Shown: positions 1,590 through 4,478 of the stretch, piece by piece
Position numbering within the stretch: position 1 is the stretch's first letter
Layout: the number at the start of each line of letters is the position of its first letter
IMG/VR virus record: IMGVR_UViG_2639762982_000003
Origin: a virus
Lineage: Duplodnaviria > Heunggongvirae > Uroviricota > Caudoviricetes
Direction: 5' to 3' (one strand)
DNA length: 7,334 nt
Notes under the pieces: model-generated
What the model saw: the letters and a program-made list of their open reading frames with translations, nothing else
Database searches by the model: none
Told to the model about the DNA's origin: nothing
Position numbers and translations under genes: made by a program

Positions 1590-1967
1590 TCAGCGTTTCA
1601 ACTGAAAGTGAGGCCCGTCTTTCAGTGTTTTCCAGTCCCCGCCCCATTCGATGGCAGTTCCCAGCTCTGCGGCAGCCTGCTTAAATGCCTGCGCGATTTT
1701 CTCGTACAGAGGCCAGTCCCATGACACCTGGCTGCCAATGTAGGCCACAACATCCACCGCATCACCGGTCAGGTGGCGGCTGTTCATGGTCTGGCTTTTC
1801 CCTTCCGCGACCAGCTGTTTCTGGCGATACTTACTGCGCAGGCCTTCCGTAATACCGAAATCAACCTCCGTCAGTTCCAGCGCACGGCGAACGACAGCAA
1901 CCAGCTGTGGTTTGACGCCCTCCAGATTCTTTTCGCTGCGACGACTAAATCTGAATTTACCCGACAT
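1590..1967 (-). CDS. endolysin, peptidase M15 family (phage T5-type L-alanyl-D-glutamate endopeptidase)
   Basis: Track ORF 1590..1973 begins at GTG; ATG at 1965-1967 has GAGGTGA just upstream. N-terminus MSGKFRFSRRSEKNLEGVKPQLVAVVRRALEL and the SRHLTGDAVDV zinc-binding motif match T5-type M15 endolysins as recalled. No signal peptide. Its start overlaps the stop of the upstream membrane-protein gene. Confidence 0.85.
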   Translation of the reverse strand: MSGKFRFSRRSEKNLEGVKPQLVAVVRRALELTEVDFGITEGLRSKYRQKQLVAEGKSQTMNSRHLTGDAVDVVAYIGSQVSWDWPLYEKIAQAFKQAAAELGTAIEWGGDWKTLKDGPHFQLKR

Positions 1968-1969
1968 AC

Positions 1970-2245
1970 TCACCTCAACAATGGAAAAATTCTTGCGACG
2001 TTCCCGCGTGCGCGTATTACCAGCACGCAGAACAGCAGATTAAAAAACACTTCCAGCCAGCCCGTTGCTAATGGGCGACCACACAGATAGCTGAGGGGCG
2101 CAAAGGCATACAGCAGCATCAGCAGCCAGGCCAGCCATGACATCAGCGGTTTATGTCTGGAATCACGGCGACGATAAAAAAAGAGCGTCAGCACGATAAC
2201 CGTGCATAACGCCACATTCAGCAATCCGGGAAGGTTACTTAACAT
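1970..2245 (-). CDS. holin-like membrane protein (second of two; holin or antiholin)
   Basis: 91-aa product starting at ATG 2243-2245 (internal Met of track ORF 1970..2299) with GGAGGAGG 6 nt upstream. Three hydrophobic segments (LLNVALCTVIVLTLFFY, LMSWLAWLLMLLYAFAPLSYL, WLEVFFNLLFCVLVI) and a basic C-terminus. Stop TGA 1970-1972 overlaps the endolysin GTG 1971-1973. Confidence 0.55.
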   Translation of the reverse strand: MLSNLPGLLNVALCTVIVLTLFFYRRRDSRHKPLMSWLAWLLMLLYAFAPLSYLCGRPLATGWLEVFFNLLFCVLVIRARGNVARIFPLLR

Positions 2246-2627
2246 TGCCGCCTCCTCCACCCCGCAGGCGGGAGAACAGGCCGGACACCAGCGATGCAAT
2301 ATCCTGCTGGTGGATGAACGACAGAATCTTCACCGACACCACTGACACCAGCACTGCACACAATGCGTCGACAGGCGCTCCGTCAAACCCTGTATGCTTT
2401 ACCAGCCAGGATGCCAGAACCTCTGCGCCCAGCACACCGATAATGAACGACACCAGAAAATGCGCCGCCACACGCCAGGCTGAAAGCGCCTGCGGCATCG
2501 TTGCCACAAATAACGCCCCGGCGAACGCACCAAACACAATCCCGAAATCCGTTCCGGTAAACAACCCGTACACCGTCGCCCCGCCGAGCGCCGCAGCCGT
2601 GCCGGAACCGGATAAGGGTTCAGACAT
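2235..2627 (-). CDS. holin-like membrane protein (first lysis gene)
   Basis: 130-aa product starting at ATG 2625-2627 (internal Met of track ORF 2235..2693) with AGGAGA 6 nt upstream. Three predicted TM segments and a charged C-terminus (RLRGGGGGNVK). Overlaps the start of the next gene by 11 nt. The track's 5' extension runs through a terminator hairpin and is rejected. Confidence 0.6.
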   Translation of the reverse strand: MSEPLSGSGTAAALGGATVYGLFTGTDFGIVFGAFAGALFVATMPQALSAWRVAAHFLVSFIIGVLGAEVLASWLVKHTGFDGAPVDALCAVLVSVVSVKILSFIHQQDIASLVSGLFSRLRGGGGGNVK

Positions 2628-2640
2628 ACTTTTTCTCCTG

Positions 2641-2667
2641 TAAATAAAAAAGGGCCACCAGCGGCCC
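2641..2667 (-). terminator. rho-independent terminator immediately upstream of the lysis cassette
   Basis: Hairpin GGGCC (2652-2656) / GGCCC (2663-2667) with a 6-nt loop; on the minus strand it is followed by TTTTTTATTT (complement of 2641-2651). The plus strand has no T-run after the hairpin. Confidence 0.55.
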
Positions 2668-2877
2668 GTAAAAAAACACCCCATCAAAGACACCCGCAGA
2701 TGCCTTTTATGTGGTGTTATCTGATGTGATGTGCGCCTGACGTGGCTCGGAGAAAATGAAATAAAGCTTATCTGAAATTAAGGTTAATCCGGGGATTTAA
2801 ACCATTTTTAAAGCTTAGTAATATCAAATCGTCTCCTGGAGGAGACTGATGCTTATTCTTCTTCACGGACTTTGTCC

Positions 2878-3284: not shown

Positions 3285-3359
<75 letters not shown>

Positions 3360-3362
3360 ATA

Positions 3363-3438
<76 letters not shown>

Positions 3439-3440
3439 AC

Positions 3441-3517
3441 TGGACCGCCACCGGGGACTCGAACCTCGCACACTCAACTTAAAGGGTTGACGCTCTTTCC
3501 TGATGAGCTAGTGGCGG
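3441..3517 (-). tRNA. tRNA-like gene, anticodon loop CCUUUAA (UUU, Lys, in canonical register); non-canonical, possibly a pseudo-tRNA
   Basis: 77-nt cloverleaf: acceptor CCGCCAC/GTGGCGG, U8 A9, D-stem GCTC/GAGC, perfect 5-bp anticodon stem TCAAC/GTTGA, T-loop TTCGAGT, encoded CCA. Position 33 is C rather than the near-universal U, and the T-stem has an A-C mismatch. Confidence 0.5.
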
Positions 3518-3518
3518 C

Positions 3519-3594
3519 TGGTGGCCCTTGCTGGATTTGAACCAGCGACCTGGCGATTATGAGTCGCTCGCTCTCACCACTGAGCTAAAGGGCC
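3519..3594 (-). tRNA. tRNA with anticodon CAU, ileX/ileZ-like (tRNA-Ile2 read as AUA after lysidine modification, or elongator Met)
   Basis: 76-nt cloverleaf: acceptor GGCCCTT/AAGGGCC, D-stem GCTC/GAGC, anticodon loop CUCAUAA (CAU), T-stem GCTGG/CCAGC, T-loop TTCAAAT, discriminator A, encoded CCA. Closely resembles E. coli ileX as recalled. Separated from the next tRNA by 1 nt. Confidence 0.75.
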
Positions 3595-3603
3595 GGGCGC
3601 AGG

Positions 3604-3632
3604 ATAATAACGTTACGAAATCAATGTTGCAA
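3604..3632 (-). promoter_or_regulatory. candidate sigma70 promoter driving the tRNA array
   Basis: Minus-strand -35 TTGCAA (3632..3627), 17-nt spacer, -10 TATTAT (3609..3604). The predicted start falls 2-3 nt upstream of the first tRNA 5' end at 3594. Confidence 0.45.
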
Positions 3633-3699: not shown

Positions 3700-3735
3700 A
3701 AAAAACCCGCTTGTGGGCGGGTTTTGTTTGCTTTT
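3700..3735. terminator. bidirectional rho-independent terminator, tR'-like for the minus-strand late transcript
   Basis: Hairpin CCCGC (3706-3710) / GCGGG (3717-3721) with a 6-nt loop, flanked by an A-run on one side (six Ts on the minus strand) and TTTTGTTTGCTTTT on the plus strand. Lies about 50 nt downstream of the predicted PR'-like start. Confidence 0.6.
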
Positions 3736-3776
3736 GCCATCACGTACAAAATCGGCAAAATATCAGATTTGCATGA

Positions 3777-3805
3777 AATATATGCCTTTCAATCTACTTT
3801 TGCAA
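3777..3805 (-). promoter_or_regulatory. candidate late promoter (PR'-like) overlapping the 3' end of the Q gene
   Basis: Minus-strand -35 TTGCAA (3805..3800), 17-nt spacer containing the Q stop codon, -10 TATATT (3782..3777). Predicted start near 3770; a -10-like TGaTATTTT element at about +6 to +14 resembles the sigma70-dependent pause element used for Q loading in lambdoid phages. Confidence 0.45.
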
Positions 3806-4478
3806 CACTTTGCTTTGAAAATGCCGCCTTTTGTTTTGAACGTGTTCTCATTACAAACAATAAAGCCTCACTATCAAGTCGGTGAAAAATGTGTTTCATT
3901 GCAACCCAGTGACGAGTAAATGTTTTGGACCAGTTTTTAGTTGTCACTCCCGCCAGTAATGCCAGCTCCTGGTATTCATAACCTTCCCCACCAAAAAGTT
4001 CTGCTTTTAATGCCTGCGCCGCCAGCCAGATTAATTTTTTCAGGCGTTCCTGCGTTTTCCCTGCAATTTTTCTGGTACCGGATTGAGTATTAAATTCATT
4101 CCACGCCCACTGTGTTATCGCGATCTGATATTCCCAACAAATACTCCCGCTGTAACACCACAACAACCAGGCTTTATGATGTTCTTCAAGAGACAGAACT
4201 GCCCGTCGCCATGATGATGTCGAAAACTCAACCTGACTTACCAGAGCAATTGATGAGCCTTTCGCCAGTGATTGTTTTCCCGGTATCGGTGGACTATCCC
4301 GCGTTATCATTCTTCCAGTCACTTCATCGCGGTACCGGATTTTTTTACGCCTGTAACGCCCTGTATCAAACATGGCATTCTCCTGCCAGGCTTCAAGCTG
4401 ACCTTTTGTTGCCCCACTCAAATCAGCGGTAGCGATAATGAGCTGCTCACGCACAAACTGTAAATACTGGTTATTCAT
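3789..4478 (-). CDS. putative late-gene antiterminator Q (Qin QuuQ/phage 82-like by position)
   Basis: 229-aa product from ATG 4476-4478 (track ORF starts 2 codons earlier at GTG) with GGAG upstream. Its ATG overlaps the rusA stop (ATGA). Sits immediately downstream of rusA and upstream of a PR'/tR'-like module, tRNAs and the lysis cassette, which is the canonical Q position. The family assignment rests on synteny; only two Cys are present. Confidence 0.6.
   Translation of the reverse strand: MNNQYLQFVREQLIIATADLSGATKGQLEAWQENAMFDTGRYRRKKIRYRDEVTGRMITRDSPPIPGKQSLAKGSSIALVSQVEFSTSSWRRAVLSLEEHHKAWLLWCYSGSICWEYQIAITQWAWNEFNTQSGTRKIAGKTQERLKKLIWLAAQALKAELFGGEGYEYQELALLAGVTTKNWSKTFTRHWVAMKHIFHRLDSEALLFVMRTRSKQKAAFSKQSVAKVD

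Follow-up and report, generated by a model that had tools for sequence, protein, structure and literature searches.

The window is the 7,334-nt stretch of phage DNA that was analyzed here in its full length, and all features of the module described below lie on its minus strand (Table 1). The module begins with the gene for a Q antiterminator and continues through a predicted late promoter (pR') that overlaps the end of this gene, an element resembling a sigma70-dependent pause signal and an intrinsic terminator (tR'). Four tRNA genes follow, and beyond the tRNAs are two holin-family ORFs and an M15 peptidase endolysin. The whole window is 99-100% identical to E. coli prophages, namely PPompW of O157 strains and vB_EcoS-689R5, and the module was found in 911 of 5426 complete E. 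coli genomes (about 17%).

Table 1. Features of the Q/pR'/tR' region and of the genes downstream in the 7,334-nt window.
Feature	Position	Strand	Basis
Q antiterminator gene, 229 aa, phage 82 family	3789..4478	minus	Pfam profile and identity to 82 Q
pR' -35 hexamer, TTGCAA	3800..3805	minus	promoter scan; each position at least 95% conserved in 167 unique sequences
17-nt spacer with Q stop, candidate Q-binding element (QBE)	3783..3799	minus	location of the 82 QBE; conserved positions
pR' -10 hexamer, TATATT	3777..3782	minus	promoter scan; A-11, T-10, A-9, T-8 and T-7 90-98% conserved
predicted +1, first A of AAA	3770	minus	7 nt past the -10 hexamer; AAA start as in 82 pR'
putative sigma70-dependent pause-inducing element, TGaTATTTT, extended -10-like, +6..+14	3757..3765	minus	conservation and the description of 82
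GCC, +15..+17, discriminator-like GC-rich pause determinant	3754..3756	minus	same sequence and position as in 82 pR'
predicted pause site +25/+26 (U25, A26)	3745..3746	minus	pause position of 82 pR'; T25 conserved
probable leader hairpin 1, +11..+39 (UUUUGCC.AUU / GAU GGCAAAA)	3732..3760	minus	fold; folds of the family classes
tR' intrinsic terminator, hairpin +46..+69 (core CCCGC/GCGGG), U-run +66..+71	3700..3725	minus	fold z-score; stems in the family
predicted terminated leader RNA, about 71 nt	3700..3770	minus	fold; full-length isrJ alignment
second promoter-like site, TTGCAA-N17-TATTAT	3604..3632	minus	promoter scan
four tRNA genes (CAU Met/Ile; Lys; Thr; Gly)	3285..3594	minus	ARAGORN, Rfam tRNA, PGAP annotation of the identical E. 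coli locus
terminator-like hairpins with T-runs between the tRNAs and the holin	3261-3243, 3017-2997, 2667-2652	minus	hairpins and T-runs in the sequence

The product of the Q gene matched the Pfam family PF06323 (E=2.2e-89, 299 bits against a cut-off of 25) over 217 of the 220 profile positions, and the same search returned no match to the lambda family PF03589 (E<=0.01) or to the 21 family PF06530. PF06323 represents the Q82 family, one of three families of Q proteins that have no sequence similarity to each other (PMC9388147). By tblastn, the window Q is 77.7% identical to Q of phage 82 (X92588) and 72.9% identical to Q of phage 434, which annotators have labelled Q82-like. The identification of this gene as Q, made earlier from the DNA alone, is therefore borne out. 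A sequence search of the PDB found no homologue of the window Q with a solved structure, and a scan of the genome contigs with the window Q protein found only four loci, which are near-identical. The Qin prophage of E. coli K-12 was considered as a reference and rejected; its YdfT/QuuQ protein is unrelated to the window Q (BLASTP E=29), so the transcript maps of K-12 are inapplicable here.

The promoter region was compared in 257 loci around Q82-family genes, taken from phage records and IMG/VR, in which the identity of Q to the window protein or to other anchors fell to about 50%; 167 unique sequences were anchored on +1. The phage 82 record (X92588) ends at the Q stop codon, so loci whose Q is 98% identical to 82 Q at the DNA level (L007, L088 and others) were used to stand in for phage 82.

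The promoter scan placed TTGCAA-N17-TATATT at 3805-3777, with 9 of the 12 consensus positions and optimal spacing. The TGA stop codon of Q (3791-3789) lies inside the spacer, so both the site and its overlap with the Q stop are as the earlier note had described them, and only the term "near-consensus" was a little generous. The overlap is not obligatory, since eight IMG/VR E. coli loci (L062, L069, L072-L075, L079 and L082), in which the Q frame ends at a TAG about 20 nt earlier, before the -35 hexamer, have kept the promoter DNA. Seven bases past the -10 hexamer the sequence reads AAATCTGATATTTTGCCGATTTTGTACG, and the first A of its AAA is the predicted start site. The wild-type 82 pR' transcript also begins with AAA, which causes stuttering (PMC5001585). 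In addition, the Rfam alignments on the leader begin near the predicted +1 (isrJ at 3773, isrK at 3772). The QBE of phage 82 sits between the -35 and -10 elements (PMC4914094). Spacer positions A-29, A-28, A-23, T-21, A-19 and A-18 are each at least 92% conserved among the 167 unique sequences, and by its location we infer that the spacer of the window promoter is a candidate QBE.

The -35 region also carries a feature on the other strand. On the plus strand, opposite to Q, the sequence TTGCAACACTTTGC at 3800-3813 fits the CII-box consensus TTGC-N6-TTGC, and it has the palindromic TTGCAA in common with the pR' -35 hexamer. Phage 434 has an annotated CII site and a paQ -35 at the equivalent place. 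Of 112 unique family members, only 28 carry the CII-like box, and these all belong to the E. coli type.

The pause element of 82 pR' is -10-like with an extended -10 and is nearer to consensus than that of lambda (PMC5001585). The GCC at +15-17 of 82 pR' is needed for the pause, and its mutation shortens the pause about 5-fold; 82 pR' also has an AT-rich stretch, and its pause falls at +25/+26, where +25 is a U (PMC5001585). Counted from A3770 as +1, the TG of the window falls at +6/+7, TATTTT at +9..+14, GCC at +15..+17 and U at +25. All of the published 82 pause determinants (AAA, the extended -10-like element, GCC and U25) are thus present in the window at matching coordinates. In the 82-like loci L007 and L088, TTGCAA-N17-TATATT is followed by AAATCTGATATTTTGCCAATGTTGTACG, and the fuller reading, AAATCTGATATTTTGCCAATGTTGTACGCACTGG, agrees with all of the features described for 82 pR' (PMC5001585). 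Over the first 28 transcribed bases the window and these loci have 2 differences, and over the first 34 they have 5; the two are identical over +22..+28 (TTGTACG). Between -35 and -1 there are 6-7 differences, several of which are in the spacer, the candidate QBE. What these comparisons show directly is the elements and their register, conservation of both in the family and homology of the region to 82 pR'. The proposal that TGaTATTTT is a sigma70 pause element is also supported by this sequence comparison, as an 82-type element in the 82 register.

The conservation of this region in the family is selective. Among the 167 unique sequences, T6, G7, A8, T9, A10, T11 and T14 are 95-100% conserved, as is T4; C17 is conserved in 96% and T25 in 91%, and +12 and +13 are free to vary. 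This pattern is the one expected if sigma70 regions 2 and 3 read TGnTATnnT, rather than the product of simple sequence inertia. These data also bear on whether the module could be strictly of the lambda type, with Q of the lambda family, pausing at +16/+17 and recognition of the QBE by the lambda-Q fold. Although the overall logic and the position in the genome are as in lambda pR', this reading is barely credible, because the window Q has no match to PF03589, the Q families are mutually dissimilar (PMC9388147) and the -10-like element of the window lies 9 bp further downstream than that of lambda (PMC5001585). The module had been described as lambda-like, which holds for its overall logic and not for its type, which is given by an 82-type Q (PF06323, not PF03589) and a predicted pause at +25/+26.

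The promoter and pause motifs were also assessed as one composite pattern. The fixed-register pattern of -35, -10 and TGnTATnnTGCC had one match in the window and none in 200 shuffles of the window, even when 3 mismatches were allowed. In 218 of the 257 loci there is a single match to TTGCAA-N18-A-N3-T-N11-TGNTAT, and its distance from the Q stop is always the same. A second explanation to be weighed is that the hairpin at 3700-3725 is only the terminator of the early-right (Q) operon and that the promoter and pause motifs arose by chance. The hairpin does lie about 65-90 nt past the Q stop, a plausible place for an operon terminator, and promoter-like matches at 9 of 12 positions are common (6 found and 3 expected in 2 kb). 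However, chance would have to account for a composite motif that is absent from all shuffles, that keeps its offset in loci whose Q identity falls to about 50%, and that matches the characterized pR' of phage 82. In the Salmonella prophage Gifsy-1, moreover, the motif stays with the late region though an inserted module puts it about 0.9 kb from Q. We therefore regard an operon terminator with chance motifs as very improbable. The module is instead, with high confidence from these comparisons, taken to be the pR'/qut/tR' of a phage 82-type lambdoid E. coli prophage.

The tR' hairpin (3725-3702) has 9 pairs and a 6-nt loop and is followed by T6 at 3705-3700. Its folding energy alone is -13 kcal/mol (z = -3.1), with none of 200 shuffles as good, and that of the whole 72-nt leader is -20.9 kcal/mol (z = -2.9). 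Together, these z-scores and the absence of the composite pattern from the shuffles confirm the promoter, pause-like and terminator sequences at the coordinates in Table 1. In the family, 158 of 167 unique sequences have a terminator within +155, with stems that include CCCGC/GCGGG, GCCCGAGG/CCTTGGGC, GCCTCGC/GCGGGGC, CCTGTC/GGCAGG and GACCTCGC/GCGAGGTC. Several unrelated stems thus occupy the same place, and single compensatory changes are found as well (L088 compared with L007), a pattern that indicates functional conservation of the terminator through stem replacement. In one locus (L031) homology to the window stops directly past the U-run, which marks this point as a module boundary. Two other loci (L089 and L093, locus positions 1874-2111) combine an 82-type Q, the promoter and the pause element with a leader that diverges from about +28 onward and has no terminator-like site before about +200; they represent either a remnant of a rearrangement or a variant with a long leader.

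The U-run is polymorphic. The window has T6 followed by G, T7 is the most frequent run among the IMG/VR loci, and the PPompW prophages of O157 strains have an interrupted run, TTTTGTTG (the U-run comparison included L001, L027 and L059). The PPompW terminator with this interrupted run might be leakier, and termination in the window, given its T6-G run and the existence of TTTTGTTG variants, may itself be leaky. The earlier note had claimed a strong bidirectional terminator at 3700-3735. A predicted terminator with a significant fold is found there. Bidirectionality holds formally, as the plus strand also folds and has a T-rich tail, and probably has no meaning, because no plus-strand gene converges on the terminator.

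With the U-run at +66..+71, the leader RNA would be about 70-72 nt long, at the top of the 50-70 nt expected beforehand. Leader lengths in the family were estimated crudely, as the end of the hairpin plus 7 nt. The unique leaders fell into three classes, of 55-59 nt (n=12, the 434 type), 70-84 nt (n=132) and 100-104 nt (n=11), with for example about 78 nt in the 82-like loci and about 54 nt in phage 434. The 6S leader RNA of lambda is 194 nt. The predicted leader is indeed much shorter, as had been claimed, and this is not a special compaction of the window, since both the length estimates (55-104 nt) and the mapped 74-nt IsrJ RNA of Salmonella make a short leader the rule in the Q82 family. 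Termination in lambda has been placed at +193 (PMC4914094), and for phages 21, phi80, 82 and P22 short late-promoter RNAs regulated by antitermination have been noted before (PMC7547250).

Upstream of the terminator, the leader is predicted to form a first hairpin (-7.9 kcal/mol, z = -2.5), the 5' arm of which contains the GC-rich +14..+18. RNAalifold found no consensus structure in a MAFFT alignment of 113 leaders, because the arms of different leader classes are in different registers. Hairpin 1 was therefore assessed by folds of single sequences by class rather than by column-wise covariation. In these folds a hairpin closing near +13/+36 was predicted in nearly all of the 113 unique 70-84-nt leaders, with arms of distinct sequence (GUCG/CGAC, UGCC/GGCA, AUGCUGCC/GGCGGCAU and CGGCAA/UUGUUG) and with stabilities from -13.5 kcal/mol (z = -3.7) to -2.4 kcal/mol (z = +0.3, in Gifsy-1 IsrJ). 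It is included in the Rfam isrJ consensus and is missing from the short 434-type leaders. These folds are suggestive only, and hairpin 1 is a probable structural feature of the leader. A 45-aa ORF at 3758-3621 was considered as a leader peptide and rejected, as it crosses the terminator and the sequence beyond is not conserved (L031). A text search of the literature for the leader sequence gave no match.

Downstream of tR', the earlier note had put both the tRNAs and the lysis genes under the control of the switch. The tRNAs are probably not controlled by the Q switch alone, as they have a promoter-like site of their own at 3632-3604, whose end is 10 nt upstream of the first tRNA gene. Identity to the region upstream of ileZ in Stx2 phages begins exactly at the -35 of this site and is perfect from there onward, and thus the tRNA cassette has the appearance of a mobile unit that carries its promoter along. 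The tRNA at 3519-3594 (minus) was called Met (anticodon CAT) by ARAGORN and tRNA-Ile by PGAP in the identical E. coli locus; its homology to ileZ of the Stx phages makes a lysidine-modified tRNA-Ile2 probable. Between the tRNAs and the holin are three further terminator-like sites, which would fit a processive antiterminator. The last of these (2667-2652) lies just upstream of the likely true start codon of the holin.

The start site, pause, Q binding, termination efficiency and read-through of the window module are inferred by homology to phage 82. The proposed switch would operate as follows. Sigma70 RNA polymerase would start constitutively at A3770 from the promoter that overlaps the end of Q. 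Sigma70 would be retained and would rebind the non-template TGaTATTTT (+6..+14), and this contact, with the GCC at +15..+17, would give a scrunched pause at +25/+26. When Q is absent, the polymerase would escape and terminate at the hairpin and U-run at +46..+71, leaving an RNA of about 71 nt. Once Q had accumulated, it would bind the spacer (QBE) and board the paused complex with the help of NusA, converting the polymerase to a terminator-resistant form. The modified polymerase could then pass tR', the tRNA cluster and the three terminator-like sites beyond the tRNAs and so reach the holin and endolysin genes.

The leader was also compared with known small RNAs. The Rfam model isrJ (RF01393), which is built on the sRNA of Gifsy-1, aligned with the window at 3773-3701 with a score of 24.5 bits, below the gathering threshold of 37 bits. 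The alignment spans positions 1-75 of the 75 in the model, and the middle 24 nt are unaligned. The same model scored 30.4 bits in the 82-like locus L007, 62.6 in Enterobacter phage CobraSix (L009), 63.1 in a Klebsiella phage (L010) and 100.3 in Gifsy-1, and the above-threshold matches in Klebsiella and Enterobacter phages are immediately past the Q gene. Because the middle section does not align and the score is below the Rfam threshold, the window leader is best read as a divergent relative of IsrJ and not as a member of the family. Other matches were rejected. The isrK match in the window, also full-length (22.7 bits against 50), is not meaningful, and isrK of Gifsy-1 overlaps the c4-a1b1/C4 module, a different element. 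The remaining weak Rfam matches (amino-acid leaders, STnc370 and others) come from the terminator hairpin and from no other part of the leader. Another named sRNA in lambdoid late leader regions is STnc100, a gammaproteobacterial sRNA, which has a match downstream of tR' in the Klebsiella phage (L010 1564-1759, 104 bits) and scores 41 bits, just below threshold, in phage 434 (L002 3373-3577).

In Gifsy-1, isrJ is preceded by TTGCAAAACTGGATTAAAACGGCTATATT, which is a Q82-type pR' with a relic of the last Q codons. The inserted module of this prophage (L096, NC_010392.1 31500-35100) occupies locus positions 1907-2830 (minus) and contains isrK, overlapping the c4-a1b1 targets, followed by the C4 antisense RNA, orf45 and anrP. 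The insert replaced the last codons of Q and left the relic AACTGGATTAA in the pR' spacer. It presumably resembles the immunity region of phage P1. IsrJ is a 74-nt RNA that was mapped by primer extension and affects invasion by Salmonella (PMC2330248), and in a lysogen it is reported to be highly transcribed in all conditions (bioRxiv 10.1101/787010). A mapped and highly transcribed IsrJ lends experimental support to such a transcript in a homologous module. In the accessible literature, IsrJ is treated as a virulence-associated sRNA and is not called a late-promoter leader or a loading site for AntQ. The identification of IsrJ as the leader of a Q82-type pR' is well supported and, being absent from this literature, is possibly new.

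This relationship raises another reading of the RNA of about 71 nt, in which it is primarily a trans-acting (possibly Hfq-dependent) sRNA of the IsrJ lineage, retained because it acts on the host in lysogens, with a role in antitermination that is secondary or additional. This reading is compatible with the main explanation by antitermination. The isrJ model aligns with the window leader from end to end, the architecture is shared, and IsrJ has its effect on invasion. StxS shows that an RNA by-product of pR' can become a regulatory sRNA (PMC7547250). In addition, 824 E. coli records contain the leader at 99% conservation or more. A primarily trans-acting function is nevertheless doubtful for several reasons. 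First, conservation in the leader coincides exactly with the positions required for the DNA-level pause (+1..+17 and +25), and the rest is freely replaced between members, which argues against a conserved seed. Secondly, the 434-type leaders are without the middle section altogether. Lastly, the high identity among E. coli copies may be no more than a sign that the prophage has spread recently. A broader proposal, that the Rfam IsrJ family consists of terminated Q82-type leaders and that the window RNA is its divergent E. coli member, made constitutively in lysogens and acting in trans on mRNAs of the host or the phage like StxS, is likewise offered only as a tentative possibility.

For the antitermination module itself, the annotation settles where the late promoter, the Q-loading site and the first terminator lie in a very common type of E. 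coli prophage, which includes the ompW-integrated PPompW of O157 strains. Its tRNA and lysis genes would stand behind several terminators that need Q. The link between Salmonella IsrJ, with its Rfam family, and Q82-type leaders suggests that IsrJ expression reflects constitutive activity of pR', and it marks where AntQ of Gifsy-1 should load. The mechanism worked out on phage 82 is left unchanged, and the window module is a typical element of a known kind.

Four known systems can be set beside this module. In lambda, as proposed for the window, a constitutive late promoter lies next to Q, sigma70 causes a promoter-proximal pause at which Q is loaded, and a short terminated RNA is made in the lysogen. 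However, lambda Q belongs to PF03589, which is unrelated to the window Q, and the lambda pause is at +16/+17; its -10-like element lies 9 bp nearer to the start than that of 82 (PMC5001585). StxS of the Stx phages is similar in that it arises as a by-product where an antiterminated late promoter precedes a tRNA cassette, and these phages have this cassette in common with the window. In contrast to the window, the Stx phages have a different Q, and the primary transcript of 258 nt is processed by RNase E to 74 nt (PMC7547250). The Stx and window leaders have no sequence similarity upstream of the tRNA promoter.

IsrJ of Gifsy-1 is closer. TTGCAA-N17-TATATT is followed there by AAATCTGATAT, and the promoter and +1..+11 are common to Gifsy-1, the window and the phage matches. 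Both leaders have a predicted single-stranded 5' end with the pause element, hairpin 1, an A-rich linker (GCAAACAAAA in the window and CCAAACAAAU in IsrJ) and a terminator, and isrJ is followed by a tRNA and, further on, a holin gene. Unlike in the window, the C4/isrK/anrP module separates Q (STM2617, AntQ) from the isrJ promoter. Phage 82 shares with the window the Q family, the -35 and -10 hexamers with their spacing, AAA, TGaTATTTT, GCC and U25. The window differs from phage 82 in the sequences of hairpin 1 and the terminator and at several positions in the spacer, and its leader of about 71 nt, compared with about 78 nt in the 82-like loci, is followed by four tRNA genes.
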